The notes under the pieces are model-generated. The model was not told the DNA's origin. It was given only the letters and a program-made list of their open reading frames with translations, and searched no databases. Positions 1-52,396 of a stretch of 52,396 bases of DNA are shown here, piece after piece. Each line of letters opens with the position of its first letter. Within the stretch, counting starts at the first letter, position 1. Both the position numbers and the translations under genes were made by a program. This stretch comes from a virus (lineage: Duplodnaviria > Caudoviricetes). The stretch lies in IMG/VR virus record IMGVR_UViG_3300036829_000063, positions 1 through 52,396 of that record; one strand, written 5' to 3'.

Positions 1-530
1 GCCAGCTCCCGGTCCAGAGGCCGGAACACATCCAGGTCGATCATGTGAGGCACATACAGCGCCCGGGTGTGCCCAGCCGCCTTGATCAGCTCCAGGCCGT
101 GACGAGACATAGCGATCGGGCGGAGCCTCGTCCCCTCCAGGAGAGCCTGATCCGCCACGCCCAGCTCATCCTCCACATCCACCGGCATCCACGCCGCCAC
201 CGGAATCCTGGCCATCAGGCACTCCAGGACCGCGCTCTCTGGCATCACCCACGCATCCATCAGCATCAGGACCAGATCCGCCTGGACACTCTTGGCGTGC
301 TTAGCCATCACATCCGCGCCGTACTCCGCCCGGCCCATCGGGAGAACCGTGATCCCCTCCCACGTCGTAGCCGAGCCCTGGAGCCCGTAGAACGCCCCGA
401 TGACCACCCGGTAACCCAGCTTGGTCAGCTCCCGGGCCAGAGTCGCGCACTGGGTGCCATACCCAGACCCCACCCACGGGGCATTGCTGTGAATGTAGAT
501 GGTCTTGGACTGGCCCTCGGGGCTAGTCAT
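1..530 (-). CDS. Glycosyltransferase (GT-B/GT4-like), N-terminal part, truncated by window edge
   Basis: Not in the ORF track because there is no stop in the window. My translation from ATG 530: MTSPEGQSKTIYIHSNAPWVGSGYGTQCATLARELTKLGYRVVIGAFYGLQG...DLVLMLMDAWV...AAWMPVD...IAMSRHG...LYVPHMIDLDVFRP. The SNAP..GYG.Q, IAMS and YVPH.ID...F.P motifs match phage GT4-type enzymes. The start overlaps the stop of the upstream gene. Confidence 0.8.
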   Translation of the reverse strand, partial: MTSPEGQSKTIYIHSNAPWVGSGYGTQCATLARELTKLGYRVVIGAFYGLQGSATTWEGITVLPMGRAEYGADVMAKHAKSVQADLVLMLMDAWVMPESAVLECLMARIPVAAWMPVDVEDELGVADQALLEGTRLRPIAMSRHGLELIKAAGHTRALYVPHMIDLDVFRPLDREL

Positions 531-945
531 CGTAGGAGAGCTGAATCAGCAGAGGAGTGAGGCTCCCGCCGTCGAACCCGGCCACCGGGGGAGTCTCCAG
601 CCACACCCGGCCACGCTGGTCCAGCCACCCAACCTGGCGCATCCGGATTGGGGCCACCAACTTACTGGCCTCATCCTCCGTGAACGGCCCCGCAACACGG
701 CCCAGCGCCGTGAAGTCAACCGAAGCGCTCAGAGACAGCCCAGTCTCCCAGCACGGCACATCCCCCGCCGTCCTACCGGGAGCCCCATCCTCGGGCGTTG
801 CCTGGTGTTCACTGCGCACCACTTCCCCGCTGTTCTCCTGAGCCCTGGCCGTGGCCTTGGCCAAGCCGCCGTACATCGGCCGCACCAGCGCCGGGTCAGC
901 GTGGGGAAGCTCCGGGCCTGGACGTGGATCATTCTCAGTCGCCAT
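523..945 (-). CDS. Hypothetical protein immediately downstream of the major capsid
   Basis: ATG 945 is preceded by GGAGAGGA. The stop overlaps the glycosyltransferase start. Confidence 0.6.
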   Translation of the reverse strand: MATENDPRPGPELPHADPALVRPMYGGLAKATARAQENSGEVVRSEHQATPEDGAPGRTAGDVPCWETGLSLSASVDFTALGRVAGPFTEDEASKLVAPIRMRQVGWLDQRGRVWLETPPVAGFDGGSLTPLLIQLSYDD

Positions 946-1026
946 GGGTCTATTTCCTCTCCGGAATACCGAACGGGGCCAGACCATCCGGCCCGGCCCC
1001 GCTCAGATTACCGCTACGCGTGGTGG

Positions 1027-4000
1027 TTAGCGGACCACCAGCATCTTGAGCGCCGCCGCCGCCCTGATCATGGAGTTGTTCCTCCACCAGCAGAAGTAGC
1101 CCCGCTGGCCGGTCGGGTAGCCCACACCGGACCCAGCGGTTGCCTGCTGGAAGAGCTGGGGCACAAGCTCCATGTTCATGCCCACCCGGTCCACGATCAA
1201 GAACCCGGTCTTGAAGTCCCCGAAGATCAGGATCTTCTTGCCCGAGGTCGTGGCCGTGTCCATCGTGGACAGCTCACGCGCCGGGTAGCCCACGAGCTGG
1301 GGCGGACGCCCCGCACCCAGGTCCACCCACACGTTGGCCATGGTGCCCGTACCGAACTGGCGCACCAGGTCGTAGATGGCCGAGTCCGTCAGGAACTGGC
1401 CACGGCTCCGGAACCGGGGACCGACCGCGTTCTTGACCGCGTACACATCCGCCACCGTGAACGCCGCCGAGCCCGCCGTGAGCACCTGCTGGGCCGTGCC
1501 GAAAGTCGTGATCAGGCCACCCGCGTGGGGAGCCGTCCCATCACCCAGCACGAACCCGTTTGCGCCGGTTGCCTCCTCCTGGTCCTTGGCGTCCGCCAGG
1601 AGACCCATCATCTCGGCCTGGAGCCCGGCCCAGTCACCCTCGATCTCCACGGAGAACGGGATGAACCCCTGGACACGCTGGGGCTTGATCGTGGGCTGGG
1701 TCAGCGTCGGGCTGTTGTCCGTGTTGACCGCGTTCTCAGACCCACGGCTCACGGTCACCCCGGCCGTGTTCACCAGGTCCAGCTCCTTGGAGCTGATCTG
1801 GCGAACATCCGCCATGTCCCGGAGCGGGTTGATCGACCCATCGGAAGTCAGGGTCACGGACGGGTCCAGCTCGAAAGGAACCGCGAAACCGCCGTCAGCC
1901 CCGGAGTTGGTGCTGGTGCCCAGCGCTCCAAGGATCTGCTGGTCCCGAGGGTTGAGCATGTGCGGGCCGCCCGAGCGGAGCGCCAGGCCGAACACCCGGG
2001 AGTACTCCGGGTTACCCGTGGCCAGGATGCGCTGGGCGATCTCGCCGTCCTTGTCCGGCACCCGGGCCAGGAGCTTGGCCACCCGGCCCTGGACCGCCGC
2101 CGTGTCATCGTGGCCGGGGAACTTGGCCCGCTCGATCGCACGGAGCGCGTTGTCCTTGTAGGCCGCCCCCAGCTCGTCCGAGGAGCGCACGGTCTGGCGG
2201 ATGGCCGCCAGGTCGTAGATCTCGCTGCCACGGTCCCGGATGAACGCCGGGGCACCGTACATCGGGGCCGCACCCGGAGCCGCACCCTGGGCCGCACCCG
2301 CCGAGCCGTCGCGCGGGGCGTCACCAGCGAACCCGCCGGCCGCCGCCATCTGGGCCTGGCGGATACCGGCCAGCGCCGCCGCGTTCTCCATCTCGGTGGC
2401 CCGCGCAGCCACGGCCTGGAGGTTGAGCGCGTGGTCGCGCTGTTCCGCCAGGAGCTTCTCCCACTCGCCCTGCATCTCGGTGGGGAACTGGGATGACGGG
2501 TACTGGGCCGCCATGCTGTTGAGCAGGCCCGCGATCTCCTCCACACGGGACCGGCGGCCCTCAATCGTCCACTCCATGGTGGACCCTCCTCCACTTGTAT
2601 GGGTGGCCACCTGACCACCGTCTGGTGACGCCTGGGCGTGAACCGTGGGCGTCGAACCGGCCGCCGATGCCGCCGGGGGCTCATAATCGGGGTTGATGTC
2701 TTTCATCAGCCCCTCCAGCTTGGATCTGGCCGCCGCCTCATTGGTGAGGCCCTGAGCCTGGGGCAGCCGGGACAACGCCTGGCGGACCCCCTCAGCGTTG
2801 GGCGGGCTGTCCGGGGTGTAGCGGTACGGGAGCGCGTAGGCCGCCTGGGTGTTTGGGTCCTCACCGGACCGGCGGCCCGCCGTGATCCCCGCGTAAAACG
2901 CCGCCTTGTCATCAGCCGCCGCACCGTTGGCCCACGCCTTGGCCGCGTCCCATGCCGAGTTGTCCACGCTGGCCGCCCTCGGGAGCTGGGTGGCCGCGTT
3001 AGCCGGCATGGGGACAGCGCCAGTCCCGGTGGCCGGGTTGACCGGGATTGGCCTGAGCTGAGTCCCGTCCTCAGCCCAGTAATCGTGGTCCGTGTCCGTC
3101 CCGGGCTTGGAGTCGTCCTCCCCATCACCGTCCGGGTCGAACTGCCATGTCCCTCCCCGGTAGACCCAGCCGTTGTTATCCCCGGTGGCCGCCTCGGCCG
3201 CCGCTGTGGCCTCGGAGCTGGTGTTGCCCTGAGGCTGAGGCTCCGGGGCCGTGATCACCGGGCCGGGAGACGGCCGCACCCCAGCCGCTATCTGGTCACG
3301 CTCAGCCCGCCGGACAGCCAGGCTCGTGACGCTGGCCGCCACGGGCTCCGCCCCATCCACCTGGCTCTTGTCCGCCCGGCTGGACACGATGATCCCCGTC
3401 AGGAGACCAGCGTCAAGAGCCTGATCCGCCGTATACCAGGTTTCCGCTTGCATCACGGCCCGCCACTCAGCGTCCGTCCCGCCCACCGTCTGGGCCAGTA
3501 CCCGGGCCATCTGCTGGCTCACGGTCTCCAGCCGGGCCGCCATGGCCGTGAGCGCCGCCGCGTTCCCATCGGTGCCGGACCACGCCTCGTGGAGCATGAC
3601 CTGGCTCAGCTCGGCCCCGTAGCGCTCCTCCCCGGCCATCATCAGGAGAGCCGCCGAGGAGGCCGCCAGGCCGTCGTTATAGGTGTTCACGCCCTCACGC
3701 GCAATGAGCGCGTTAAAGATGGCGTACGCGTCGAACACTTCCCCGCCGGGAGAGTTGATGTGGAGATCCACCGCGCCGTCGATCTGGGCCAGGTCCGAGA
3801 TGAACTCCGAGGCCGTGACGCCCCAAAACCCGATCTCGTCGTACACATCCATCCGGGTGGGGCCGCTGGAGCCCTGAGCCTTGGCGTGGATGCGATACCA
3901 GGAGCGCCCCTCCACGCGCTGATGCCTATCCTCACGGGCCATGGCGTGAATCCTTCCCGGCCGACCGTGGCCGTTAGACGTGGCGTTGACCGCTCGGGCC

Positions 4001-5448
4001 GCCGCCGCTTGCCTCGCGCTCGGGGCCGGGGCATCGCCCGAGCCGCTATCTGGGGTGGTCTTGGCCGCATCGGCCGCCGGATCATCAGCCCCCGGAGTCT
4101 CCAGGTTGGGATCAGGCTCACCAGGCCCAGGAGGCTGGAGCTGGATAGAGGTCAACCCGGTGTGCTTGAGCACGCCCCAGTCGTTGGTCCGGACCGCCTC
4201 GGTAACGGTGTCCGGCTCGTAGCCCTCACGGATCAGCGTGGACATGGTGGTGGCCTCGGCCATCTGGACGTTGGCCCGGTCCTGGGCGTCCTGGCGCATG
4301 AACGGGACACGCATGTCATACCAGAGCGTGGCCTGGGGGCTGGGCTTGGTCAGGAGAGGCTCCAGGCTGGCCGCCGCCTCACCCCACAGATCCACCATCG
4401 TGCCGTCAGAGAACCGCCGCCGCGCGCTGTCAAAGTTGCCCGCGTTGAGCGCTGAGCCCTTGAGGCCCTCGGACATGCCAACCCAGCTCGGGGGAACCCC
4501 GGCCGCTGATGCCATCCTCAGCTCAGCGCTGGCCTGGAGGAGCGCATAGTCCATGTCCTTGAAATTGAGGCCCACCGCCACCGGGTCCGCCCCGCCACCC
4601 AGATACATGGTCTTGTATGCGTTGGCGATCCCGGCGTGCTCCTCCTCCAGCAGCTCTATGAACTGGCGCACCCGGTCAATGTCCTGAGCCGCGTCGAACT
4701 TGATAGCCAGGTTGGGCGTGGCCGCGTTGCGGAAAAACTCATCCTTGTGGTCGATGGCCGCCAGGTCTGCGCTCAGCTCCCGCATCACCGGAGTGATCCA
4801 CGACTGGCCCAGCCAGGAACAGTCCGGGTCCGGGATCGGGGCATAGTGCCCGATCTGCTGGGGAAAGAACCACTGAATCTGGCCGCCCGGCGGGCCGTAG
4901 ATGTAGCCCACCCTCTCGATATCCGCCGCCCACGCCGGATTATCCGGGCTCTCCTGAGATCCCAGGACCACGGTCATCCACTGGGGCTCCAGGACAAAGA
5001 TCTGGTTACCGCGCCGCCGCACGTACGCCTGCCCGGCGCTGGACCCATACCACTCCATGCGCTTGAGGAGGCTCTGGGTCGTGCCACCCGGCCACGGCCG
5101 CTCCAGCACCGCCAGTTCTTTGGACCCGTACAGGTCACCAGGCTGGGAGCCGGACATGTTGGTCCACTGGAAACGGGTCTGGCCGAACACCTGGGAACGG
5201 GCCAGGATCAGGGAGAACACCGTCGACGTGTACTTACCGGCCGACCGCTGATCCCGGACGATCTTCTCACGGTTGGTCTTGTTCATGGTGGTGTTGAGCA
5301 AGGGATAGCCCAACCCGCCATATGTCATCCACTGAGCCCACTGGCCAAAGTCCAGGCTCTCGATCGAAGCCCTCAGACTCTCCCGGGACACCCGGCCAGG
5401 GTCCGCCCGGCGGGCCAGCCTCGCCCTAGTCCGGTCGACCGCGCTCAC
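1027..5448 (-). CDS. Fused portal - ClpP-type (S14) head maturation protease - linker/scaffold - HK97-fold major capsid protein (1473 aa)
   Basis: aa ~1-440 HK97-family portal (FFRNAATPNLAI..., LNFKDMDY...RMASAAGVPPSWVG). aa ~510-690 ClpP (YDEIGFWGVTA, LHINSPGGEVF, DGLAASSA, MLHEAW). aa 958-1473 capsid (coiled delta domain, DGGFAVP, LVGYP, FGDFKTGFLIVDRVGM). No in-frame stop. GTG start has GGAGG upstream. Confidence 0.93.
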   Translation of the reverse strand: MSAVDRTRARLARRADPGRVSRESLRASIESLDFGQWAQWMTYGGLGYPLLNTTMNKTNREKIVRDQRSAGKYTSTVFSLILARSQVFGQTRFQWTNMSGSQPGDLYGSKELAVLERPWPGGTTQSLLKRMEWYGSSAGQAYVRRRGNQIFVLEPQWMTVVLGSQESPDNPAWAADIERVGYIYGPPGGQIQWFFPQQIGHYAPIPDPDCSWLGQSWITPVMRELSADLAAIDHKDEFFRNAATPNLAIKFDAAQDIDRVRQFIELLEEEHAGIANAYKTMYLGGGADPVAVGLNFKDMDYALLQASAELRMASAAGVPPSWVGMSEGLKGSALNAGNFDSARRRFSDGTMVDLWGEAAASLEPLLTKPSPQATLWYDMRVPFMRQDAQDRANVQMAEATTMSTLIREGYEPDTVTEAVRTNDWGVLKHTGLTSIQLQPPGPGEPDPNLETPGADDPAADAAKTTPDSGSGDAPAPSARQAAAARAVNATSNGHGRPGRIHAMAREDRHQRVEGRSWYRIHAKAQGSSGPTRMDVYDEIGFWGVTASEFISDLAQIDGAVDLHINSPGGEVFDAYAIFNALIAREGVNTYNDGLAASSAALLMMAGEERYGAELSQVMLHEAWSGTDGNAAALTAMAARLETVSQQMARVLAQTVGGTDAEWRAVMQAETWYTADQALDAGLLTGIIVSSRADKSQVDGAEPVAASVTSLAVRRAERDQIAAGVRPSPGPVITAPEPQPQGNTSSEATAAAEAATGDNNGWVYRGGTWQFDPDGDGEDDSKPGTDTDHDYWAEDGTQLRPIPVNPATGTGAVPMPANAATQLPRAASVDNSAWDAAKAWANGAAADDKAAFYAGITAGRRSGEDPNTQAAYALPYRYTPDSPPNAEGVRQALSRLPQAQGLTNEAAARSKLEGLMKDINPDYEPPAASAAGSTPTVHAQASPDGGQVATHTSGGGSTMEWTIEGRRSRVEEIAGLLNSMAAQYPSSQFPTEMQGEWEKLLAEQRDHALNLQAVAARATEMENAAALAGIRQAQMAAAGGFAGDAPRDGSAGAAQGAAPGAAPMYGAPAFIRDRGSEIYDLAAIRQTVRSSDELGAAYKDNALRAIERAKFPGHDDTAAVQGRVAKLLARVPDKDGEIAQRILATGNPEYSRVFGLALRSGGPHMLNPRDQQILGALGTSTNSGADGGFAVPFELDPSVTLTSDGSINPLRDMADVRQISSKELDLVNTAGVTVSRGSENAVNTDNSPTLTQPTIKPQRVQGFIPFSVEIEGDWAGLQAEMMGLLADAKDQEEATGANGFVLGDGTAPHAGGLITTFGTAQQVLTAGSAAFTVADVYAVKNAVGPRFRSRGQFLTDSAIYDLVRQFGTGTMANVWVDLGAGRPPQLVGYPARELSTMDTATTSGKKILIFGDFKTGFLIVDRVGMNMELVPQLFQQATAGSGVGYPTGQRGYFCWWRNNSMIRAAAALKMLVVR
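2575..2593 (-). promoter_or_regulatory. Internal RBS and in-frame ATG (Met958) for a stand-alone major capsid protein
   Basis: Minus strand reads GTGGAGGAGGGTCCACC-ATG(2577). 5448-2577=2871, a multiple of 3. The site lies exactly at the start of the capsid region. Confidence 0.8.
3940..3958 (-). promoter_or_regulatory. Internal RBS and in-frame ATG (Met503) at the start of the ClpP domain
   Basis: Minus strand reads GGGAAGGATTCACGCC-ATG(3942). It is in frame with 5448 and just before the ClpP motif SWYRI. Confidence 0.6.
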
Positions 5449-5689
5449 GTGCCCGGATTCCCTCCGCGAAGCCCTCCGCGACAGCCGCGCATATCCAAGC
5501 TATGCACTGCCATCCGAACCGGAGCGTCCTGGCGGAGACGTATCCGAGGCAAAACAACACGTTGGTGATCAGGGCCAGTATGGCCTTACCCGTACCCCGG
5601 GCCACCCGGCCCGGCTGGATCTCACGGGCTCGGGCGTCCACGCGCTCCAGCACGACCGACCGCTCATCACCGGCTGGCCACACTGACAT
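5426..5689 (-). CDS. Small hydrophobic protein between terminase and portal
   Basis: 87 aa with a hydrophobic C-terminal half. It overlaps the portal start. Confidence 0.6.
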   Translation of the reverse strand: MSVWPAGDERSVVLERVDARAREIQPGRVARGTGKAILALITNVLFCLGYVSARTLRFGWQCIAWICAAVAEGFAEGIRARERGRPD

Positions 5690-5766
5690 GGACGGGTCCT
5701 CCCCAAGTGGATCACTGGCTGAGGGCCAGGGTAGCAGCCATATCCCAGCCGGTGGAGTCTGGCGCG

Positions 5767-6117
5767 CTACCCGATGCGCTCCAGCCAGTACCCGCCCACG
5801 CTGGGCAGATAGTCCGTGATCTCATACCGGACCACCAGATTGGTCCCGTTCACCGTCAAGATCCCGCCCACCAGACGGAACCCATCAGGAGCCAGCCCAA
5901 GGTGAGATGGCATCACCGGAGGCTTGATCGTGAACTCAGGCCACCACGCCGGAAACCCCAGGATGTGCCACAGCCGCTCCCCAGAGGTCACGAACTCCAC
6001 CGGAGCCGAGTCGACCACCAGCTCCCCCCACTCCAGCCGCCGCACCACCAGCTCACCCTGAGGGAGATGCTCCAGGTCCACTACCGGCGGGATCTCAGGC
6101 CGGGGCTCACCGCTCAC
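5767..6117 (-). CDS. Hypothetical protein
   Basis: The likely GTG start at 6117 overlaps the TerL stop. Globular-looking sequence. Confidence 0.5.
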   Translation of the reverse strand: MSGEPRPEIPPVVDLEHLPQGELVVRRLEWGELVVDSAPVEFVTSGERLWHILGFPAWWPEFTIKPPVMPSHLGLAPDGFRLVGGILTVNGTNLVVRYEITDYLPSVGGYWLERIG

Positions 6118-7660
6118 GGCCTCCACGCCTACGGGCCGAGGAGATGATGAACGGGGCAGGGAGGGCCGTGGCCTCACCGTGGATGAACGCATACCGGGCC
6201 AGCGTGACCGCATCCATCGGAGTGACGTCGACAGCATCCGGACCCGTCCCCATTCCCCACGCCCACGCGCCCGCCAGTGGCCGCTTGACCGAGGTCTTAG
6301 CCGCTCCGTCCAGCTCGGTCTGGCCGATGTGCCACACCCGCCGGTTATCCAGGTCGTCCACCAGAGCGCCGCACGCCTGGGCGAACTCACGGGAACCTAC
6401 CAGGATCAGCTCCCGCTTGCGGGGCCGTTTCTTGTCCGCGTGGATGCCCTTTAGCGCCAGGTCATCCTCTGAGATCTTCTCCCGGGCACCAGGAGCGATA
6501 GCCACCGCCACGGCCGCGTGACGCTCGGCCAGGTCCGCTATCTGGTCAATGTGGCCGAGCGCTCCCAGTTCCCGCCAGACCAGCTCCACATGGAGGTCCC
6601 CGTCCTCCCGCCGGCCACACACCGCGATGTAGGTAACCGAGCGGTCCGGAGCGATGGCCGCACCGATCCCCAGCGTTCCCGTGAGCCTGCTCTCCACGTC
6701 CGCCTGGCGATCCCAGACCTCAGGAATCAGGCACTTGAGCGTGATGCTGGACTCATCCCGCCAGCCCATCATCTCCCGGCCATACTCGGCCGGTGTCATC
6801 GACGTTCGCAACGTCAGGAACGTCTCCGGGCGTGCCCGGCCGCCGTACTGAGGATTAGCTATCGCTATCATCTCGGGCTTGTCACAGCCACACCCTGGCG
6901 TCCCCCGCAGATGCTTGCAACGCTTCCCCAGGTCGCACGCTATCTCCGGATCAGGAGCCTTGTACTCCATGTAAAACATCGTGGGATCAGACCCCACCCG
7001 GCCCTGGTCTTGCATGTCCCGGAGCCAGTCCGACTCCGCCTTAGGGTGACTAGATCCCGTGAGGATCTGAGGATCTGCCTGGGCCGTGATCGTGGGCATC
7101 AGCGCGCCAACGTGAGCCGGCTTCACCGCGTAACCCTCATCCAGGATCACCCTCGGGGCCGACAGGGACCGGCCGTTGGCTGGCGTCCGCACCCGGAACA
7201 GCATCCGGCCGCCCCAGATCGTCTCCAGCGTCACGCCCGCGTCGTTGGTGCTGATATCCACGGTCTCCGCCGCCAGGTCCGGGCACCCCAGGATTAGCTC
7301 CCTCATGCCCTCCACCATCTCCTCATACGCCATGGAGTTGTGGGCCGAGTAGACCACCAAAGGAATCTGCTCTACGTAGAGCCAGCCAATCGACGCTTGC
7401 TTGAATAGCCCGGTCTTGCCCGTGGACTGGCGTGGCCCGACGATCACCCCGTGACGGACCGCCAGGAGCCCCTCCTCAGTCCGCCCGAAAATCGCATCCA
7501 ACATGAGCTGTTGCTGATCATCCGGAGGGAACCCAGCCTTGAGGCACAATAGAGCCACGTCCCGCCCGGTCGTCAGCACGTACTCCGGAGAGTGCAGATA
7601 CGCCGGGGGCTTGGGCCTCAGAGGCCGCTCCAGATCAAACGGGATCGGATCAGCCAGCAT
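6107..7660 (-). CDS. terL: Terminase large subunit
   Basis: Q-motif (DDQQQL), Walker A GPRQSTGKT, Walker B VILDEGY, coupling motif TGSS, and a C-terminal RNase H-like nuclease (VDVTPMDAVTLA). Located upstream of the portal. Start placed at MLADP after GGAGAGG. Confidence 0.92.
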   Translation of the reverse strand: MLADPIPFDLERPLRPKPPAYLHSPEYVLTTGRDVALLCLKAGFPPDDQQQLMLDAIFGRTEEGLLAVRHGVIVGPRQSTGKTGLFKQASIGWLYVEQIPLVVYSAHNSMAYEEMVEGMRELILGCPDLAAETVDISTNDAGVTLETIWGGRMLFRVRTPANGRSLSAPRVILDEGYAVKPAHVGALMPTITAQADPQILTGSSHPKAESDWLRDMQDQGRVGSDPTMFYMEYKAPDPEIACDLGKRCKHLRGTPGCGCDKPEMIAIANPQYGGRARPETFLTLRTSMTPAEYGREMMGWRDESSITLKCLIPEVWDRQADVESRLTGTLGIGAAIAPDRSVTYIAVCGRREDGDLHVELVWRELGALGHIDQIADLAERHAAVAVAIAPGAREKISEDDLALKGIHADKKRPRKRELILVGSREFAQACGALVDDLDNRRVWHIGQTELDGAAKTSVKRPLAGAWAWGMGTGPDAVDVTPMDAVTLARYAFIHGEATALPAPFIISSARRRGGRER

Positions 7661-7826
7661 CACGCCGCCTCTCCAGCTCAGCGTCCAGGTGGAGCACCGC
7701 ATCCGCCAAGCCCTGACCCTCCCGGCACCACAAGCCGCCGCTCACATGGCAAGGCTGGCACGCCTGCCGGTGGGCCACGAATCGGTCCAGCGCCCGGTCC
7801 CGCTCGGCCAGGAGATCAGGCATCAT
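7650..7826 (-). CDS. Small Cys-containing protein (58 aa, CQPC...C)
   Basis: Manual translation MMPDLLAERDRALDRFVAHRQACQPCHVSGGLWCREG...; it fills the gap and overlaps both neighbours. Confidence 0.5.
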   Translation of the reverse strand: MMPDLLAERDRALDRFVAHRQACQPCHVSGGLWCREGQGLADAVLHLDAELERRRDAG

Positions 7827-8150
7827 CGGGAGCCGCCTCCAACGCGCGCCGCTCCAGCTCCTCGGCCGTCAGGCCCTCCCGGCCACACGCCAGCGCATCC
7901 GCCATCTCGTCATGCATCCACGCGTCGTCGTCATCCCACCGACCCTGGCCGCCGCACCCCGGAGCCCGGCACGCGCTCGGCTGGCTACTCACCGCGCATC
8001 CTCCGCCGGGCCAGCTCATCCCGGGCCAGCTCCGCCCGGCTAGCGTTGAGATATTCCTTGAGCGCCGCCAGCTCCTCGTCCATCGCCCGGTACAACTCCC
8101 GGGACGGAGACCGCACCACCCCCAGCCGGACTAGGAGCCGATAGAACAGG

Positions 8151-8642
8151 TCAGCTAGCACGGGCCGCCGCCAACCGGAAGATCTTGGCCTGAGCCGACC
8201 GCCGCGCCGCCACAGCCGCACTCTCCGTCTCCTCAGACGAGGCCACGGCCGCGCTCACAGCCTCACGATGCGCCTTGATCAAAGACCCCAGCGCCGCGCC
8301 GGACTCGTGGTAGCCATTCTCAATCCGGTACGCCAGCGCCAGCGCTGGCCCCGCCAGCTCCGAATCTTCCACACCCGCCTTGGCCAGCCTCGCCTTGGTG
8401 ATCTCCACCATCGGCCCGATCGTTTCCCGGAAAGCCGACTCCCGGGCCTTGATCTCCTCGGCCACAGGATCGGGAGCTGGAGCCGCCGCCATCTGAGCCA
8501 GCCCAGCCATCCGCCGCTCTTGCTTCCGGTCCAGCGCCGCCTGAGCCCGGCACCCACCAGAGTGATACCGGGCCGACGACCGCTCGGGAGCGAACATCAC
8601 GGAGCACCCGTTACGCGCGCACTCCCGCTCTGGCAACGCCAC
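8151..8642 (-). CDS. Probable terminase small subunit with N-terminal Zn-finger-like segment
   Basis: CARNGC...RYHSGGC N-terminus and a helical ALALAYRIE.G core. Located upstream of TerL near the genome end. Confidence 0.6.
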   Translation of the reverse strand: MALPERECARNGCSVMFAPERSSARYHSGGCRAQAALDRKQERRMAGLAQMAAAPAPDPVAEEIKARESAFRETIGPMVEITKARLAKAGVEDSELAGPALALAYRIENGYHESGAALGSLIKAHREAVSAAVASSEETESAAVAARRSAQAKIFRLAAARAS

Positions 8643-8672
8643 GACGATCCCTCCTCTCCGTGACCAGGATAG

Positions 8673-9797: not shown

Positions 9798-9819
9798 GGT
9801 GGATCTCCTCTCTCCACCG

Positions 9820-9882: not shown

Positions 9883-9959
9883 TAATCTGCCTGCTAGAGG
9901 CCCTCCACGGCCCTCCTGGGGATCTCCCACCATCCGGACGCTGATCACAGTCCGTAGCC

Positions 9960-43178: not shown

Positions 43179-43182
43179 ACCC

Positions 43183-44274: not shown

Positions 44275-44797
44275 CGAGCCAAGCCCGCTGTGGAGCCCGT
44301 GACTGTGGCGCTCCGATCATGTGGACCACGACCGCCACTGGAGTCTCCCAGCCGGTGGACCAGGAGCCGAGCCCGGACGGAGTAGTGGTCGTCAAGACCG
44401 TGGGCTCCTCCCACCGTTCCTGCGTGGTCATGGATCTGAGCGCGCCGATAGACAAGGATGAGGCCCGGCATAAGCCGCACCACCAGACGTGTCCCTCCTC
44501 GGGCCAGTTCCGCCGGGCCTCGGGGACGGCCACGCTCCGGGATAAGCCCCCGGAGGGTCCGGTCCTTTTCTGATGCCCAGCCTCAACATCTCCAAGGGCA
44601 CACCGTGGGAGAACGGTGGCGTTTACTGCGCTGAGCCCTCATGCCCGTGGTCTGAGGAGTTGCCTGGCGGCCCGGTAGGCCGTGGGTACACCAACGCGCT
44701 ACAGGCCGCCCAGCGTCACCTGGCGGAGGAGCCCGGCCACCGGGTGGACGCTGTGGTGGTCCGCACCCTGAGCGCCACGTTCCGGATGGACCCGTGA
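44271..44797 (+). other. Two small Cys/His proteins (44271-44573, 44573-44797)
   Basis: C...DCGAPI.W...H..TCP and C...SC...H....PGH.V. Confidence 0.65.
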
Positions 44798-45153
44798 TGG
44801 CCAGTATGGATGAGGTCCGGGCGGTCGTCTGGGAACGGGATCAAGGCTCGTGTGTCCGCTGTGGGGTGAACCTCTCCAGCCGGGAGGGTAGCTTTCACCA
44901 CCGCCGCTTGGGCAACCGGGCGGACAACAGGCCATCCAACCTGATCTTGCTCTGTGGCTCGGGGACGACCTACTGTCACGGCTGGGTCCACCACAACCGG
45001 ACGGCCGCGTTCGACGCCGGGTGGATCGTGTCCCGCCACGGCCGCGTGGAGAACACTCTGGAGATCTCGGTCACGTACGGCCAGCCCCGCCAGGAGGGCC
45101 AGTTCCGGCTCCTGGACGAGGCCACCGACGATAAGTGGATGCTGGCCGCATGA
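44794..45153 (+). CDS. HNH endonuclease
   Basis: V.ERD...CVRCG...HHR.......SNL..LC......CH.WVH. Confidence 0.85.
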   Translation: MMASMDEVRAVVWERDQGSCVRCGVNLSSREGSFHHRRLGNRADNRPSNLILLCGSGTTYCHGWVHHNRTAAFDAGWIVSRHGRVENTLEISVTYGQPRQEGQFRLLDEATDDKWMLAA

Positions 45154-45472
45154 GGAGCCCGAGAGCCAGGCTCCGCCGCTGGCGATACAGCCGCAAGATG
45201 GAGCGCGCATTCTGGCGGGCCTCGTCCGTGGCCACCGCCAAGTGGCGGGCCGGGGAGGACTTCTCCCCGTGGGTCCGCCTCGTGGAGGAGCTGGAGCATC
45301 TCCCGGACGAGGATCTGGCCGCCCTGTAAACCTCCCGGCCCCGCCGGGCGTCACACACCACGGAGAGGAGCATCCCGCACGACCGCCCGCTCGGGCGTAA
45401 ACTCACCATCCGTCGAGAGAGAGCCCGGGGACACTCCCCCGGAGATCACACCACCGAACAGAGGAGAGAACC

Positions 45473-46132
45473 ATGGCAGGAAAGCACAGCATCCGGAAGA
45501 TCCGCGAACGGCTCAGCCTCAAGGCCCAGGTGGCCGTCCTGGCCGGCCTCGGTCTGGCCATTACCGGAGCCGTCGCGCTGGACAGCCTCGTGGGGTCCGC
45601 CTCGGTCACCGCCGAGTGCTCGGCCGCCACGTACACCAACGCCGCGAACCCGTCCGGGGCCTACTGCGGAGATCTGGAGCTGGTGGGCAAGTCCCTGGCG
45701 GTCTCCGCCACCAACCGTCCCGTTGCCGGGGCCAAGGTCCAGGTCTTGGCCCTGGCCAAGACCAACGGCAAGGAGGATCTTCTCCAGCTCCACCCCTACC
45801 TGGGGAGTGGCCAGGTCAAGGTGTTCGCCTACGCCCCCCATGGCGTGCTCTACACCGATAACGGGAAGTACGCCAACGGGCTGTGCATCACCGCCAGCTC
45901 CGCCGCCGTCCGCGCGCCGCTGGTCTGGGAGGGCTGTTTCAATAACCTGGCCCAGAAGTTCACGCCCGTGGCCGTCGACGGTGGCTTCCACTGGCGGTCC
46001 AACCTGTCTGGCTACTACATGGCCGACCCCAAGGGGGGCCCGGAGTACACCCAGATGCAGCTCCGCAACTGGTCCAGCAACCCTAACCAGGTGTTCACCG
46101 CTACCGGATTCGCTGGGCCGCCCACGCCCTGA
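45473..46132 (+). CDS. Secreted protein with ricin-B/beta-trefoil lectin-like domain
   Basis: Basic N-terminus plus signal/TM helix, then GLCIT...C....AQKF and ...NQVF repeats. Strong RBS. Confidence 0.65.
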   Translation: MAGKHSIRKIRERLSLKAQVAVLAGLGLAITGAVALDSLVGSASVTAECSAATYTNAANPSGAYCGDLELVGKSLAVSATNRPVAGAKVQVLALAKTNGKEDLLQLHPYLGSGQVKVFAYAPHGVLYTDNGKYANGLCITASSAAVRAPLVWEGCFNNLAQKFTPVAVDGGFHWRSNLSGYYMADPKGGPEYTQMQLRNWSSNPNQVFTATGFAGPPTP

Positions 46133-46151
46133 CGTGTAGCGCTCAGCCGCT

Positions 46152-46197
46152 GGCGGCCCGCTCTGGTGATGCACCCGAGCGGGCCGCCGTCGTTTTA
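46152..46197 (+). terminator. Intrinsic terminator
   Basis: GGCGGCCCGCTC...GAGCGGGCCGCC followed by GTCGTTTT. Confidence 0.75.
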
Positions 46198-46211
46198 CCC
46201 GGCTAACCCCG

Positions 46212-46280
46212 TTGCACGCATCCCCACACGTGTGGTTTAATGGGTGGTGGAGAGAGACACGCCAACCTGAGGAGCACCAC
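46212..46280 (+). promoter_or_regulatory. Cassette promoter (TTGCAC...TTTAAT) with CCACACGTGTGG at 46224-46235
   Basis: Palindrome in the spacer, GGAGAGAGAC leader, GAGGAG RBS, ATG 46281. Confidence 0.8.
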
Positions 46281-47503
46281 ATGGTCACCACCGCCGAGAT
46301 CACGGACAAGGGTTACAGCATCGGAATCCCCGCGACGTGGGACACGCTGGCCGAGCCGATGGCCGAGGCCCACCGCCTGGTCATCACCTGGCAGGATGCG
46401 CCGGTCCACGACCGCACCGTGACCTACCTCACCGACGACCAGGCCGCGCGGGACACGTACGAGGCCCTGGCCGAGTGCAAGGATGCCGTGGAGGTTCTCT
46501 GGCAGACCAGAGGCAAGACCGGCCGCCCCCGTTTCGTGGCCGTCCGCGCTACCATCCACACCACGCTCCCGATCTGATCCCCACCCAGACGAGGCCCGGT
46601 CCATTACCCCCCGATGGACCGGGCCTCCTGGCATCTACAGCTCTTGGAGAGGAGCCACCATGCCCACCATCCCCTCACTCTCGGTCCGCCTCGGCCACCT
46701 GAGCCCCCGGGAGTTGGCCGCCGTCCGGGGCTATCACTGCACTGCTCCGCTATGCCAGGCCATCCCCGGCGTGATGTGCCGCCGCCAGCGTGGCCTCTAC
46801 GTCCAGTGGGGCCGGGACCTCAAATATCCTCATCCCGTCCGGATGCGGGCCGAGGCCCGGGGGCTCCAGGAGGAGCGTTATCTGGTCTCCCAGGTGGAGC
46901 TGATCCTCCGGGAGCTGGGAGAGCCCGTGAGCCGCCGCCGCCTGTTCACGGTCCTGGAGATCCTCCGCAACGTCCGGGAGAGGCCGGGCTGGTGAAACCT
47001 CTATCCAGCTTTAAGGAACACGGGACCGGGCTGGTATACGTCCGGGTGAAGTTTTCGCCCAAAGGCCGCCCGTATCACTACAGCGCCCCGGCGGGCCTCG
47101 TACGGCCCGGGGACGTGGTGGCTGTCCCGTGTAACTGGGTGAGCCCGGAGGGCACCCTGGCGGACGTGGTGGCTGTCCTGGGTGAACCCCCGGAGATCCC
47201 GGGCGTGGACACGTTCGCTGCCATCTGGCGCGTGATCCCGCCGGACCAGCTCCCGCTATTTGGCCGGGAGGGCTATCCGATGCCCCACGCGTACGGCCCC
47301 GAGGCCAGCCAGTGAGCGCCGACCGTGGCTCCCTGGAGCCCCTAGAGGAGCGTTGCCTGAGGCCGGGCCACTGGGTGATAGAGGGCTACTGGGCCGAACG
47401 TGGAGCCGGGCGTCGGTGGGATCTGACAGACCCCGGCGGGGTCCTAGTGGCGCGTCCGGCCACGCTGGACGAGGCCCGGGAATGGATCAGGGAACACCGC
47501 TAG
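46281..47503 (+). other. Small genes (46281-46577, 46660-46995 Zn-finger-like, 46992-47315, 47312-47503)
   Basis: RBSs and overlaps. A hairpin lies at 46591-46627. Confidence 0.65.
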
Positions 47504-47568
47504 ACAACTCCCCACGCGTGTGGTTTACTCGGTGTTGGAGAGAGACACCACACACCGAGGAGCACACC
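47501..47568 (+). promoter_or_regulatory. Cassette promoter TAGACA-17 bp-TTTACT with palindrome in the spacer
   Basis: TAGACA 47501-47506, CCCCACGCGTGTGG 47510-47523, TTTACT 47524-47529. Confidence 0.8.
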
Positions 47569-47784
47569 ATGGGATCACTAGCCACCACCGACCGCCCCAT
47601 AGAGGTCCGCTGTGGAGCTTGCAAGGGCCGCCATCCCAGCTCTCACGAGGTCCGCGCGTGCTACGCCGCCAAGCGTGAGGCTCAGGCTGAGGAGCGTTAC
47701 TGGGCGGACCAGGAGGCCCACAACGACGCGCTCACCGCTGAGCTGGAGGTGGAGCGGCTCCTGGAGGAGTATGGCGCGCTCTGA
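47569..47784 (+). CDS. Small Zn-binding protein (CGAC..H.....VRAC)
   Basis: Single-gene cassette: promoter, RBS, and a downstream hairpin at ~47797-47835. Confidence 0.7.
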   Translation: MGSLATTDRPIEVRCGACKGRHPSSHEVRACYAAKREAQAEERYWADQEAHNDALTAELEVERLLEEYGAL

Positions 47785-47837
47785 CCTAGCCAGGCTGAGG
47801 GCCACCGATCGGGGAAACCCGGCCGGTGGCCCTTCCC

Positions 47838-47901
47838 CTTTACTCCACACGTGTGGTTTAATTCGTAGTGGAGAGAGACACCCACACACGAGGAGCCCCA
47901 G
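47838..47901 (+). promoter_or_regulatory. Cassette promoter with CCACACGTGTGG (47845-47856) followed by TTTAAT
   Basis: Same architecture as the copies at 38653, 46212 and 47501. Confidence 0.75.
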
Positions 47902-48249
47902 ATGACCTACACCGACCACGCAGCCGAGGCCCGCAGCAACAGCCGCCGCGCCGCCGCCGCCACGCGTAGGGCCAAGCGGGACGCCCAGGAGGCTGAGCGG
48001 TTCTACCTGCTGGCCGCCGAACTCCGCCGCCAGGCCGCATGGCTCACCGGCCGCCCGAGTCTGTGGGACGAGAGCTACACCCCGGCCGAGCTGGAGCGCC
48101 GCGCCCGCTCCTGGACCAGGAATGGGGACACGTACCTCCGGGGAAGCTTCCGCGCCGACGACAGCGCCGTGTTTTACAAGGGCATAGCCGCCAGCTACCG
48201 CAAGATGGCCGCCAGTCACGCCGCGTGGATGAGCGCCGCACTGGTCTAG
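47902..48249 (+). CDS. Ala/Arg-rich hypothetical protein
   Basis: Single-gene cassette with GAGGAG RBS. Confidence 0.7.
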   Translation: MTYTDHAAEARSNSRRAAAATRRAKRDAQEAERFYLLAAELRRQAAWLTGRPSLWDESYTPAELERRARSWTRNGDTYLRGSFRADDSAVFYKGIAASYRKMAASHAAWMSAALV

Positions 48250-48261
48250 CCTGAGCTCCCG

Positions 48262-48303
48262 AACGGGCCGCCATCCCAGCCGGGTGGCGGCCCGTTTATT
48301 TGT
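48262..48303 (+). terminator. Intrinsic terminator
   Basis: AACGGGCCGCCA...TGGCGGCCCGTT followed by TATTTGT. It abuts the next promoter palindrome at 48305-48316. Confidence 0.8.
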
Positions 48304-48348
48304 CCCACACGCGTGGTAGATTGATGGACGGAGAGAGAGGAGCACCAC

Positions 48349-51300
48349 ATGACCAAGCGCAAGGACCCGCTGGAGCGCACACGCCGGGGGATGTACCTCG
48401 GCCAGCGGACCATAGGCGACTATCAGGCCCTCCGCCGGGGCCGCCTCCCCCAGAGGCTCATCCGCCGGGCCGTCACCCGCCGGGTGATGCGCAAGATCTG
48501 GAGCCGGTAATGGCCATCAGCGTGATCGAGTTGGGGCCGGATCTCCACATCAGCGTGGAGCCAGCCACGGACGGGAACACCCGGGTAACCGTCACGGTGC
48601 CAGACCCGTCCTATATCGGACGCGTGGATTACTCCGTCAGCTACCCCGTGAGCCCCGAGGTCATCACCGAGCTGGTGGCCGCGCTGGAGGGAGGATTCTG
48701 ATGGCCACCATCTACCTGGCATGGTCCGGGGACGATCCTGAGGAGCGCCGGCTGGAGGCCGCGTTCACCCGCCGGAAAGATGCCGAGGCCCTGGAGCTGT
48801 CCAATGACGTGGAGGAGATCCAACTCCGGGACGGCCCGGCCGAGGTCCGGGACTGGCATGGCGTGATCTGGTATCTGGGCCGCCCGCTCCAGACCCCCGA
48901 GGAGACACGCCCCGGGAGTGTGCCCAATCCTTACCCGTATTCAGGTGGGTCTCAGCGCATGATCTACGACGGCCAGCCGGACTGTGTGACCGTCTCCAAG
49001 GGGATGCCCAACGCCATTGGTTACGGGACCGTGTGGGTGTGGGGCTGGGATCTGGAGCTGGTCATGGCTGAGGGCAACCGGATCTATCGAGAGGAGACAA
49101 GCTGATGGCTAACCCACCGCATGACGAACATCTCCTCAGCCTCCATGAGGCCCACCTGGCTCTCCTGGCCGCCGTCACTCAAGGCCATGGCGTCACGGCA
49201 GAGGCCGCGCTGGAGGAGGCCCGGAACTGTATAACGCGCCACGCCACCGAGGCTCCCAGCCTGGAGTCCGCCGCCCAGCTCGTGGCGGAGATGCGCCACT
49301 GGGCCATCACGCAGGCTCCCCAGCGCCAGCGGGCCGGGGAGATGGATCTCCGGGTGGAGTGGTCCGGGGACGACGGAGCGTGGGCCGCTGTGTTCATCCG
49401 GGACGGCCAGCCGTGGTGGCTGGACGGAGCCCTGATGGGCATGGCCGCCACGCCCCCCAAGGCTCTGGAGGAGTTGCTGGGCGTGGCCCGCCACCTGGTG
49501 GTGGAGGGCTCCAATTTCCTGATGCAAGACAAGCCGCCGCTGAGCGCCGCCGACCGCCGCTGGCTGTTCAATCTCACCGACGTGGGAGTTAGTGACGACG
49601 TGGCTTACCAGGCTGTCCGCAACGCTGAGGAGGCCGAGCGATGACAGACCCACTCGTCCTGGGGATCGGGACGTGTTACCTCCACAACGGCCCCATCACG
49701 TTTGATCCGGAGAGCATCACCACCGTCTGGATTGATCCCCAGACCAATCTCCCGCCGGACGTCGACGCCAACGCCAAGCCCATCACCCCGGACCCCGAGG
49801 CCATGGACCGCCTCGTCCAGCGTCCCATCTGTGATCCTTGCGTGGCCAAGGTCAATCGCCGTCTAGCCGCTGAGGGCCGCCCCACGTGGGAGACCTCGGC
49901 CACATACCGGATGGGGCCGGGATGAGCACCGCGTGGGGTCACGTCGACGTGGTCACCCTCGTGGCCATGGGGATCATCCTGGTGGCACTGGCCGCCGTCA
50001 TCGCCCTGACTGTGTGGGGCCGCCGTAACGCTGCCGTAGCCAGGGAGGCCGCCGATCGGGCCGAGGCCGCCACCCAGCCCCCGGACCGTCCCGTGGCCGC
50101 CGCTCAGGTGGGGACCTCCCGGACATTCCAGATCGGTATAGGTCTCTCGATCTACATCGCGCAACTCCAGACCGGGCTCCAGCTCCGGGTCACCATCCAC
50201 AACGCCATGGGTGGAGGAGACCTGAGTACCTCCTATCCGATCTCCGATGAGCTGGCCCGCGAGATAGCCGCCAAGCTCACCCGTAGCCGTGACTGAGCCC
50301 GAGACGGGAGGCTGGCTCGTGCCTCATCCGCTGGAGCCCGAGCTGGACGACCGCTGGCATTGGGTCAACGTCCAGGGCCTCGGAGACTCCGGGCCGGTCT
50401 GGATACAGGGCCGGTGCCGCCACGTGGAGCTGGTCTCCGTCGACTCGTGCGTGACCGGCCAGCAGCTAGCCCGGTTGTGTCTGACCTGTGACCGGCAACT
50501 CCCGCCCCGGGTGATGCCAGCCATGTGGACTCAGTTCCCGGAGCCTGAGCTGTGGATGACCACGGAAAGGATCAGATGATGCCCACCGATCCGCACGCCG
50601 ACGCCTACCGGGACCGCGCACACGCCATCATGACCACCATCTACCGGGCGTGGGCCGCTATAGACCCGATGATCCGCCACCATCCCACCGCACGGTTTGA
50701 GATGAGCCAGGACTGGTATCGGAGGCTCCGCGCGCTCCAGGTGGTGGGAGCCGGGGAAGATGAGCCCTCGGCCGAGGAGATGGCCAAGTGGGTGATCTCC
50801 CCCGGGGACACGATGCTGGACCTCCCGATCACCGAGGGCCAGGGAGATCCCGTGGTGGTGGCCGATGTTAAACCCGTCCGGCTGGCCGATTACATCCCCG
50901 GCGTTACCTGGACGACCTACGAGGAGGGAGGACCGATGCCCAGGAGCCACTGGGATGCGGCCGTGGACCTTGGGGCTTGGATCAAGCGCCAGATGGTCAC
51001 GGACGCCCAGGTAATCCAGATGACCGTGGCCGGGCCGCCAGCCGCCAATGAGGAGGCTCACGTGGCCCACCAGATCCGCCGCCGCCTCCTCAAGCTCCAC
51101 GGCTGGGATGATCAGGACCGTGGCATGTATTGCCCGGCGTGTGAGTCAGAGGATTGGTGGCCGTGTCAGACAGTCCGGCTCGTGATACTGATCTGGGCCA
51201 ACCGGGAGGGCTACGACCCACGGTGGACTCCTGAGACGGAGATCTCCTGATGGCCGAGCACGAACGCCCGTTCGGGGAGATGCTGAGGGAATACCTAGAG

Positions 51301-51793
51301 GCCGCCGTCCGGGCCAACGGGCTCCGGATTGGAGAGGTCACCCCGGAGGCCCGGGAGTGGCTGGGTAAGGCTGGTGTCCCCGTGGCTGGCCTGGCCACCC
51401 CCGAGGAGATCAAGGCCCGGTTCACTGGCTCGGAGCCGCCCCAGCTCACGGTCCACAAGGTGGAGGGCTACCTCCCGGTGTCGGAGGATCTACTCATGGA
51501 TGAGGGAGTCATCCCGGACACCCGGCCGCCACGGCCACGGCCACGCTGGCGGACCAGGCTCCGCTGGTGGACCACCACCAAGCGGGAACGCCTCGGCCTC
51601 TGGGCCTATTGGGTGATCACCGGGGACCGGATCAGGACCGATGATGACGAGGGCTAAGGGCCGCCCGCGTGGGCCACAGATCATCCCGGTAAAGACCCAC
51701 GCCCAGGTGGACGCTGAGCGCCGGGCCGCCGCCAAGGCCGTGCGCAAGCTGGCCCGGGTGAACCGCAAACGCTGGCGTGGTTTGCTCAGGTAG
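48349..51793 (+). other. Operon of ~10 small hypothetical genes (48349-48510, 48510-48701, 48701-49105, 49105-49644, 49641-49925, 49922-50296, 50289-50579, 50576-51250, 51250-51657 and a final basic ORF)
   Basis: Continuous TAATG/TGATG/ATGA coupling downstream of one cassette promoter. Confidence 0.7.
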
Positions 51794-51803
51794 CCGGAAC
51801 GTA

Positions 51804-51843
51804 CAGAGAGCCCGGGTGGGCCATCAACCACCCGGGCTCTCTG
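51804..51843. terminator. Terminator hairpin between convergent genes
   Basis: CAGAGAGCCCGGGTGG...CCACCCGGGCTCTCTG, 16-bp stem. Confidence 0.8.
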
Positions 51844-51906
51844 CTACAGATCACACACCGAGCCCCCCGCCAGGGATGCCCAGCTACCGATCACCAAGGC
51901 CCGATA

Positions 51907-52396
51907 CTAATACGACTGGGCCACTTGCCAGTGAGCCCACGCCGCACAAGGTGAGCCGTACGTGGCCGTCATGTAGCCCAGTCCCCACCGGATCTGGGTG
52001 GACGCGCTGGTCTGCCAGTCCGCCCCGGCCGACGCCATCTTGGAGCCGGGCAACGCCTGAGGTATGCCGTACGCGCCCGAGCTGGGGTTGGTGGCCGTCA
52101 CGACTCCTCCTGACTCCCGCTCAAAGATCGAGATGGCACACGAGGCCGAGGATGGGTCTGTCTGGGCCTCCACGATGCTCTCCCAGCTCCCGGACACGCT
52201 GGGGGTTACTGGGGTATGGCTGGGAGCTGGGGCTGTCTGAGCCGCAGCCAGGGCCGCGCGCCGGGCCGCTTCCCGCCGGGCTCGGGCTCGGACCTTGGCC
52301 CGGTGGACACGCCGGGCCTGGACAGCCAGCCACGCGTGGGCCGTCGCGTGGTGAGCCTCGGCCACGTCGTTGGGTGTGGGCACGGGTGGAGCCGCT
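51907..52396 (-). CDS. Lytic transglycosylase-like (SLT/lysozyme-fold) protein, 5' end probably outside the window
   Basis: RESG...ATNPSSGAYGIPQALPGSKM...DW......QIRWGL.Y....YGSPC.AW, after an Ala/Pro-rich linker. Confidence 0.85.
   Translation of the reverse strand, partial: AAPPVPTPNDVAEAHHATAHAWLAVQARRVHRAKVRARARREAARRAALAAAQTAPAPSHTPVTPSVSGSWESIVEAQTDPSSASCAISIFERESGGVVTATNPSSGAYGIPQALPGSKMASAGADWQTSASTQIRWGLGYMTATYGSPCAAWAHWQVAQSY

Follow-up and report, generated by a model that had tools for sequence, protein, structure and literature searches.

Type III restriction enzymes methylate one strand of an asymmetric site of 5-6 base pairs (bp) and cut only between inverted unmethylated sites, and phage T7 evades one such enzyme, EcoP15I, with 36 CAGCAG sites that all have one orientation, as described in the available portion of PMC3874151. 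Here we describe a strand asymmetry of the pentamer GCCGC and related words in the Caudoviricetes record IMGVR_UViG_3300036829_000063 of IMG/VR. The record for this virus, one contig of 52,396 bases with 67% G+C and without a terminal repeat, was analyzed as a whole and is called the window below. On its + strand, GCCGC occurs 464 times and its reverse complement GCGGC 17 times (exact count, whole window). An initial annotation of this DNA had noted that GCCGC lies on one strand regardless of gene direction, and had pointed to the requirement of Type III enzymes for inverted sites and the escape of T7 from EcoP15I. Its description of both agrees with the source (PMC3874151), and the exact counts bear out its observation and make it stronger than first described, with both arms of the gene map behaving alike.

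A subgroup of Type III systems methylates the N4 position of cytosine (N4-methylcytosine, m4C) on one strand of asymmetric C-rich motifs of 4-7 bp. In the available portion of PMC8259958, 17 motifs are tabulated: CGCC, CGCCC, CACC, CACCGC, GAGCC, GAACT, CCACG, TCACCG, GAACCC, AGCCGCC, GGACCG, GGACT, AGCGCC, CCACCC, CARCCC, CCACCG, and GCACCC, with GAACCC coming from the actinobacterium Brevibacterium casei and AGCGCC from a Microbacterium. In the same portion, cleavage is demonstrated only for Eco86II; that the subgroup depends on site orientation is an assumption based on the family. Phages of Pseudomonas have been reported to be depleted of MANTIS and Type III sites with a strand bias (bioRxiv 10.64898/2026.09.23.753747, available portion). 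CglI of Corynebacterium glutamicum and NgoAVII are ATP-dependent restriction enzymes with the site 5'-GCCGC-3', and CglI cuts circles with one site and, on linear DNA, has a preference of about 10-fold for direct repeats (PMC5737866, available portion). A 2018 survey, in the text available of it, did not find systematic strand-asymmetric avoidance in phages (PMC6286503).

Genes were called in the window from third-position G+C and then checked with PHROGs and Pfam. They split into two arms, a minus-strand arm at 1..37534 followed by a plus-strand arm at 37678..52396. Counted on the + strand, the minus arm has a GCCGC:GCGGC ratio of 339:8 and the plus arm one of 125:9, and the sequence outside called genes has 38:5. 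Each of the 27 two-kb bins shows a bias in this direction, with at most four GCGGC in any bin. When all 5-mers are counted against their reverse complements, the counts are far from balanced and GCCGC/GCGGC is the most skewed pair (z 20.4). The rough hand tallies of the initial annotation turned out to be exact (27:2 in 1021-3000, 18:0 in 14000-16000, and 18:4 in 40000-42000). The bias keeps to one strand across the 52 kb, including the divergent region beside the genes for an O-like initiator and DnaB near 37 kb.

Read along the sense strand, the genes of the minus arm have 304 GCGGC and 5 GCCGC, while the genes of the plus arm have 105 GCCGC and 5 GCGGC, a reversal of the usual coding preference. 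Ordinary high-G+C actinophages favor GCGGC on the sense strand about 2:1 (242:126 in REQ1, 349:150 in HenryJackson), so the minus arm exaggerates the norm and the plus arm reverses it. The choice of codons for Ala-Ala pairs depends on gene orientation, as had been proposed: the first codon is GCG in 189 of 201 pairs of the minus-arm genes (GCC in 2) and GCC in 65 of 71 pairs of the plus-arm genes (GCG in 2). At four-fold degenerate sites in the context GC_GC, C outnumbers G on the + strand by 189 to 2 in the genes of the minus arm and by 65 to 2 in those of the plus arm.

Codon bias does not account for these numbers, as the initial annotation had expected. In 300 within-gene synonymous shuffles, GCCGC:GCGGC on the + strand came to 182.4:118.4 for the minus arm, compared with 304:5 observed, and to 77.0:35.4 for the plus arm, compared with 105:5 observed; the lowest number of GCGGC in any shuffle was 96 and 24, respectively. 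In 200 resamplings from the pooled codon usage, the ratios were 159:138 and 55:56. The totals of GCSGC in the two arms, 309 and 110, are close to the null values of about 301 and 112. The bias thus persists when local skew and codon usage are controlled for, both in the synonymous shuffles and in the comparison with four-fold sites outside the word family, which are not skewed. At four-fold sites outside CCGC, CGCC, GCCG, and their complements, the ratio of C to G is 1216:1171 in one arm and 440:401 in the other, and T and A are balanced, so there is no general strand skew of the replication type, and we rejected such a skew as the cause.

The asymmetry forms a field of co-oriented sites that covers the window from end to end (1..52396) and involves several words. 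On the + strand, forward and reverse counts are 588:38 for RCCGC, 354:27 for CGCCG, 146:10 for CCGCG, 95:4 for CGCCT, and 133:24 for GCGCC, and among longer words they are 42:0 for CACCGC, 39:0 for AGCCGCC, 48:1 for TCACCG, and 22:0 for GAACCC. RCCGC is the best single description in the IUPAC code, and masking it leaves only a diffuse residue. Pentamers with self-complementary flanks offer 16 contexts, and 14 of them stay within 2:1; the two skewed ones are GC_GC (464:17) and CG_CG (354:27). A sparse regression over 7284 four-fold sites kept GCCG, CCGC, and CGCC as strand-asymmetric 4-mers and GCCGC, CGCCG, CCGCG, GGCCG, and GCGCC as 5-mers. In a blind search with the CCG family masked, TCACCG (32:1 in the minus arm, 16:0 in the plus arm) and GAACCC (17:0 and 5:0) were co-oriented in both arms. 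We also noted 24 copies of CCGGGTC and none of its complement GACCCGG (22:0 and 2:0 by arm); we take this word to resemble the 8-bp repeat to which TraB, a conjugation translocase of Streptomyces, binds.

The exceptions are few enough to be looked at one by one. The context is GCGGCC in 15 of the 17 reversed GCGGC sites, so that the six-base form HGCCGC stands at 234 to 2 GCGGCD. One of these two reversed sites is GCGGCG at 10019..10024 on the + strand, in a stretch without a called gene, and the other is GCGGCT at 47754..47759 on the + strand. About 5 of the 17 reversed GCGGC (2872, 19992, 29795, 35535, and 46153) lie in short inverted repeats as judged by eye, without folding; the one at 29795..29799 (+ strand), for example, is within the short inverted repeat gtgtGCGGCcccgcaca, also by eye. 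The sole reversed TCACCG (CGGTGA on the + strand) is at 28836..28841, and the other 48 of the 49 sites have CGGTGA on the opposite strand.

A null in which every protein and the pooled codon usage were kept indicates which of the two orientations departs from expectation. Among words that a single synonymous change cannot turn into their complement, CGCGG was observed 8 times with 144 expected, AGGCG 3 times with 75 expected, and GGCGC 19 times with 134 expected, while the reverse complements are near their expected numbers (CCGCG 135 and 167, CGCCT 87 and 91, GCGCC 123 and 155). Within genes, CGGTGA was found once with 25 expected and TCACCG 44 times with 30 expected, and GGGTTC 0 times with 12 expected. 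The retained complements of the depleted words stand at 0.8-1.5 of the null (CCGCG 0.81, CGCCT 0.96, GCGCC 0.79), and the over-representation expected of arrays like those of Chi or KOPS is not seen; Chi-like enrichment was rejected by these coding-aware nulls. GCCGC and CGCCG do exceed the null, 1.9-fold and 1.4-fold respectively, but only through the conversion of GCGGC and CGGCG into them. The one-orientation depletion recurs in each arm separately. As duplex sites, CGGTGA/TCACCG number 49, compared with 43.4 +/- 5.9 in the shuffles, with 48 of them on one strand. The asymmetry is therefore a depletion of one orientation, without selection for the other and with close to the normal number of sites.

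Site avoidance in this genome extends to words that cannot be oriented. Many palindromes are absent from the genes, with observed counts and codon-null expectations of 0 and 51 for CCGCGG, 0 and 47 for GGCGCC, 0 and 30 for CAGCTG, 0 and 30 for GAGCTC, 0 and 28 for CTCGAG, 0 and 25 for GGATCC, 0 and 20 for CTGCAG, 0 and 17 for TCGCGA, 0 and 15 for ACCGGT, and 0 and 14 for GGTACC, while GGGCCC is present once with 36 expected. Some asymmetric words are lost from both strands (0 and 0 for CACCTC/GAGGTG, GCGAGC/GCTCGC, and CTCCGGC/GCCGGAG). The genome is thus under very heavy restriction pressure generally. Given that asymmetric words are lost from both strands in some cases and from one strand in others, the phage uses both modes of avoidance.

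Several of the co-oriented words are motifs already known from m4C Type III systems. CACCGC, TCACCG, GAACCC, and AGCCGCC, at the counts given above, are tabulated motifs (PMC8259958, available portion), and so are AGCGCC (67:11), GCACCC (38:7), CGCC (852:246), CGCCC (165:69), and GAACT (30:10), which are also co-oriented in the window. Two of the sources of these motifs are actinobacterial. The minority orientation makes up 5% or less in 3 of the 10 eligible published 6-mers, compared with 25 of all 927 6-mer pairs (Fisher p 0.0018), and none of the 6 motifs of Type III systems that form N6-methyladenine (m6A) is strongly skewed in the window. TCACCG and GAACCC were found blind, before the comparison with the tables of PMC8259958, so we count them as a passed prediction. 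The absence of adenine from GCCGC is no objection to a Type III site, because the m4C subgroup methylates cytosine. The words identical to motifs of other bacteria are TCACCG, GAACCC, CACCGC, AGCCGCC, and CGCC, and GCCGC is not one of them; CCGCG, CGCCG, and CGCCT as such are likewise not in the available tables of PMC8259958.

Based on the depletion of one orientation, on the ordinary number of duplex sites, on the number of unrelated words affected, and on the matches to m4C Type III motifs, we believe that the sites were probably brought into one orientation by selection from orientation-sensitive, Type III-like restriction, which was one of the two readings offered by the initial annotation. 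We infer that Type III-like enzymes in whichever soil bacteria serve as hosts would drive the pattern. Enzymes that prefer a particular orientation, of which Type III enzymes are the classic case, cleave only between two unmethylated inverted sites, so a genome with nothing except direct repeats is refractory to them. Selection of this kind would remove one orientation of short asymmetric C-rich sites (with the cores CCGC/GCCGC and CGCC, plus CCGCG, CACCGC, AGCCGCC, TCACCG, and GAACCC) and leave copies that all point one way. Third codon positions in this genome nearly always have G or C, so the loss of GCGGC from one strand yields GCCGC, which would double GCCGC and force the minus-strand genes to GCG-GCN and the plus-strand genes to GCC-GCN for Ala-Ala. 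The larger gene arm, with a natural coding bias already in favor of one orientation, probably decided which one survived.

The closest parallel to this reading is T7, where an asymmetric site is present at a normal number and in one orientation and the genome is refractory to an enzyme that requires inverted pairs (PMC3874151, available portion). The sites of the window differ in being about 10 times more numerous (464-588), in being made of G and C only, and in being of several kinds. Unlike in T7, the bias crosses a divergent gene boundary and overrides the coding preference. In T7, where all genes have the same direction, the site bias can be explained by coding bias. For MANTIS, one-strand depletion of an asymmetric site has likewise been read as the evasion of a defense that prefers inverted pairs, although those sites are 6 bp long and hemimethylated, the preference is graded, and no comparable density or GC-only pentamer is described in the available portion of that preprint (bioRxiv 10.64898/2026.09.23.753747). 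CglI shares with the window the identical pentamer, an actinobacterial source, and ATP-driven one-dimensional communication along DNA, but because it prefers direct repeats, 464 of them would be a good substrate for CglI and not an escape from it, and we rejected it as the selecting enzyme (PMC5737866, available portion). We also rejected attack on guanines of single-stranded DNA of the DarT1 type, for which only a GNG preference and no consensus is reported, whereas the window skews GCG alone and not GAG, GTG, or GGG.

To place the pattern among other phages, we compared 41 loci: REQ1, HenryJackson, 33 loci from IMG/VR (TerL 31-41% identical), and six prophage-like loci of actinobacteria. They were found through TerL or through portal and capsid, except for HenryJackson, which was found through DpdA, and five found through a Streptomyces homologue of TerL. 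None of the 41 has the extreme bias, GCCGC:GCGGC staying within about 3-fold, and the word is not conserved as it would be in arrays of the Chi or KOPS kind. A further test was applied to individual phages, in which the choice of Ala-Ala codons was compared with gene strand. HenryJackson (cluster B1, MK494104.1) has a weaker form of the bias, with GCC:GCG of 73:105 in plus-strand genes and 103:16 in minus-strand genes, and with GCCGC, CCGCG, GCGCC, and CGCCT on its + strand at 0.4-0.7 of the null in both gene sets. Its GCGGC:GCCGC on the + strand is 305:143 in plus-strand genes and 175:45 in minus-strand genes. Rosebush, also of cluster B, has a weaker bias (odds ratio 0.39, p 6e-4), and we found no earlier description of this bias in cluster B mycobacteriophages in the literature searched. 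The IMG/VR phage fragment G001, the record of our locus L021, also has a weaker version of the bias (odds ratio 10, p 5e-7).

In the terminase-sense orientation, G001 has 5 AGCGCC and 81 GGCGCT, AGCGCC being predicted as the m4C Type III motif in a strain of Microbacterium; the genes of G001 are nearly all one-directional, and this skew may reflect coding bias. The bias is absent in four of the seven two-armed actinophages tested, namely L5, Commonplace, Wilca, and the 89-kb, 98%-complete phage G003. In the first 50 kb of Wilca, a Microbacterium phage, GGACCG and its complement occur 0 and 0 times, compared with 12-74 copies in other phages of like composition; this predicted m4C Type III motif is avoided by Wilca on both strands. 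G003 has DpdA and two large arms, with an Ala-Ala odds ratio of 1.07 and GCCGC:GCGGC of 301:336 and 224:219, and so we rejected DpdA as the cause of the bias.

Several observations weigh against evasion of Type III-like restriction as we have described it. The short forms are incompletely purged, with 17 reversed GCGGC, 192 GCGG, and 246 GGCG remaining, and one inverted pair is enough for classical Type III cleavage. The 17 m4C motifs in the available tables do not include GCCGC itself, the nearest being AGCCGCC and CACCGC. These two overlap the CCGC family and hence are not independent matches, and 8 of the 17 motifs (CACC, GAGCC, CCACG, GGACT, GGACCG, CCACCC, CARCCC, and CCACCG) are without a strong skew in the window. 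The sole characterized enzyme with the site GCCGC, CglI, would not be evaded by co-orientation, according to the available portion of PMC5737866. Among 11 one-strand-depleted hexamers outside the family, the form depleted on the + strand is G-rich in six and C-rich in none, a trend that is not obviously predicted by independent enzymes unless a majority coding bias sets the polarity. Finally, the polarity of the word family relative to the terminase is the same in three lineages (the window, HenryJackson, and G001), and in these three clear cases the C-rich words are missing from the terminase's sense strand, which is also the sense strand of most genes. The shared polarity could instead point to a polar process, although majority rule fits it too.

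Such a process would consist of an end-loading machine, or of the exposure of one strand as single-stranded DNA by unidirectional (rolling-circle) replication, packaging, or entry, with a defense or housekeeping machine that reads the words on that strand only. An absolute polarity of this kind would explain why the bias never switches strand in 52 kb, even near the divergence at 37 kb, why the polarity relative to TerL is shared with HenryJackson and G001, and why the other depleted hexamers tend to be G-rich, and a depletion is what attack on one strand would give. We nevertheless regard it as unlikely, since long exposure as single-stranded DNA usually leaves a skew at four-fold sites and there is none outside the family, the words correspond to motifs that Type III enzymes recognize in duplex DNA, the bias is missing in four of the seven two-armed actinophages and the affected words vary, which is not as expected of a conserved machine, and majority rule by the larger gene arm would give the same shared polarity. 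In one version, also unlikely in our judgment, the shared polarity in three unrelated actinophage lineages, whose terminase-sense strands lack C-rich CpG words, would be the footprint of an undescribed actinobacterial strand-tracking system; if so, one-strand depletion spectra of phage genomes would reveal what a novel kind of polar defense recognizes, and not what Type III enzymes recognize. It is quite improbable that an enzyme of the phage itself (the amino-methyltransferase, DpdA, or an HNH or GIY-YIG nickase) needs or tolerates the site on one strand, nicks or modifications on both being harmful. All of these enzymes are encoded in the window, and HenryJackson shares DpdA (46% identity) along with the weaker bias, but G003 has DpdA and two large arms without the bias, and no single enzyme would be expected to act on the three or more unrelated motif families involved.

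The other reading of the initial annotation, a polar signal for DNA translocation, was not supported. Here the retained orientation would be selected and read by a translocase, as with Chi, KOPS, or packaging guides. Known Chi sites are short and G-rich, with one orientation relative to cos active in lambda, and the sense strand of the head genes in the window carries 5'-GCGGC-3' in the canonical map. Yet the retained words that cannot be interconverted with the depleted ones are not enriched, neither a density of one site per 113 bp nor so many unrelated words would be expected of a signal, the array is uniform with no clustering at an end, the phage has its own RecE/RecT, and the bias is missing in most relatives; we therefore consider such a signal very improbable. 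We give equally little credence to a strand- and context-specific mutational process acting in the absence of selection. Graded depletion over overlapping words does resemble a mutational signature, but there is no skew outside the family, depleted words such as CGCGG, AGGCG, and CGGTGA have not turned into their complements, the exceptions include inverted repeats, where function may demand them, and the avoidance of palindromes shows that selection is effective in this genome. Substitutions relative to a 94-95% identical soil relative are also strand-symmetric (C>G 103, G>C 98, C>T 99, G>A 116). Among 40 of the 1273 variant places in the soil runs, 0 created a reversed word of the family and 2 created a forward one, too few to weigh. 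Evasion of Type III-like restriction remains our preferred explanation.

The minus-strand arm holds the head genes, terminase (TerL), exonuclease, methylase, DnaB, the O-like initiator, and a large protein with a hydrolase domain, the last being a 1521-residue protein with a phosphoesterase-like domain. The plus-strand arm holds GIY-YIG, DpdA, RecE, RecT, HNH, and small open reading frames, and the phage encodes two HNH nucleases and one GIY-YIG nuclease in all. The small amino-methyltransferase (24512..25273, minus strand; PF01555, N6_N4_Mtase) may be a second anti-restriction layer. DpdA (38684..39619, plus strand) belongs to the 7-deazaguanine DNA transglycosylase family (PF23859, E 1e-81), and no homologues of the preQ0 synthesis proteins FolE, QueC, QueD, and QueE were found in a Pfam scan of 36 open reading frames, which is the pattern of the DpdA-only group of phages. 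In Orion, a mycobacteriophage of that group, 7-deazaguanine was undetectable (PMC6884629, available portion). The single open reading frame of 1473 residues at 1027-5448 (minus strand) is a fusion of portal, protease, and capsid, with homology to portal proteins at residues 71-485, to head proteases at about 500-750, and to major capsid proteins at 1125-1454; in the nearest relatives these are two or three separate genes. A 310-residue protein (26411-27343, minus strand) falls into PHROG 6247 ('DNA topoisomerase', E 7e-99) and has no sequence match in Pfam, NCBIfam, or the PDB. Its homologues (37-50% identity) are in phages of Curtobacterium, Microbacterium, and Clavibacter and in siphoviruses of Pseudomonas, Xylella, Xanthomonas, and Roseobacter, and the Curtobacterium and Microbacterium phages with such homologues are unbiased.

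No close relative of the phage was found in a phage collection when 25 kb of the window were searched with megablast. TerL is 34% identical to that of Che9c, portal and capsid are about 40% identical to those of Rhodococcus phage REQ1, and DpdA is 46% identical to that of cluster B mycobacteriophages. A single-protein search of IMG/VR with TerL gave no relative, and an alignment search with TerL gave none in the metagenomes of the Joint Genome Institute and none in genome contigs; the closest TerL relatives, at 62-75% identity, were found only in Logan and ENA. Several soil metagenome runs carry near-identical DNA, which means that the sequence did not arise as an artefact of a single assembly, and no RNA dataset is listed as containing the window. 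In the soil run X4, a contig of 65,308 bases aligns to 28000-45467 of the window with about 94-95% identity in blocks, with several segments replaced, and reaches about 40 kb past the right-hand part of the window. No tape-measure or major tail gene was recognized in the window, and given the 65-kb contig of X4, the record may be incomplete.

Escape from restriction by co-orientation of sites is a known strategy, and this genome is a new and unusually extreme case of it, involving multiple motifs with GC-only cores, independent of gene direction, and achieved by genome-wide synonymous recoding. We found no published description of the pattern in a literature search that left most subscription journals outside its coverage. 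If our reading is correct, this would be the most extreme natural escape from orientation-dependent restriction known to us, with the two arms recoded in opposite senses at about 250 Ala-Ala codon pairs and at hundreds of further synonymous positions. Coding bias cannot be the cause here, and the genome shows that the strategy can shape a whole phage genome, which contrasts with the negative outcome of the 2018 survey in its available text (PMC6286503). A blind scan of a single phage for one-strand depletion recovered two exact m4C Type III motifs. Phage genomes could thus be mined for the specificities of orientation-dependent defenses in uncultured hosts, with (G/R)CCGC, CCGCG, and CGCC(G/T) as candidate new specificities.

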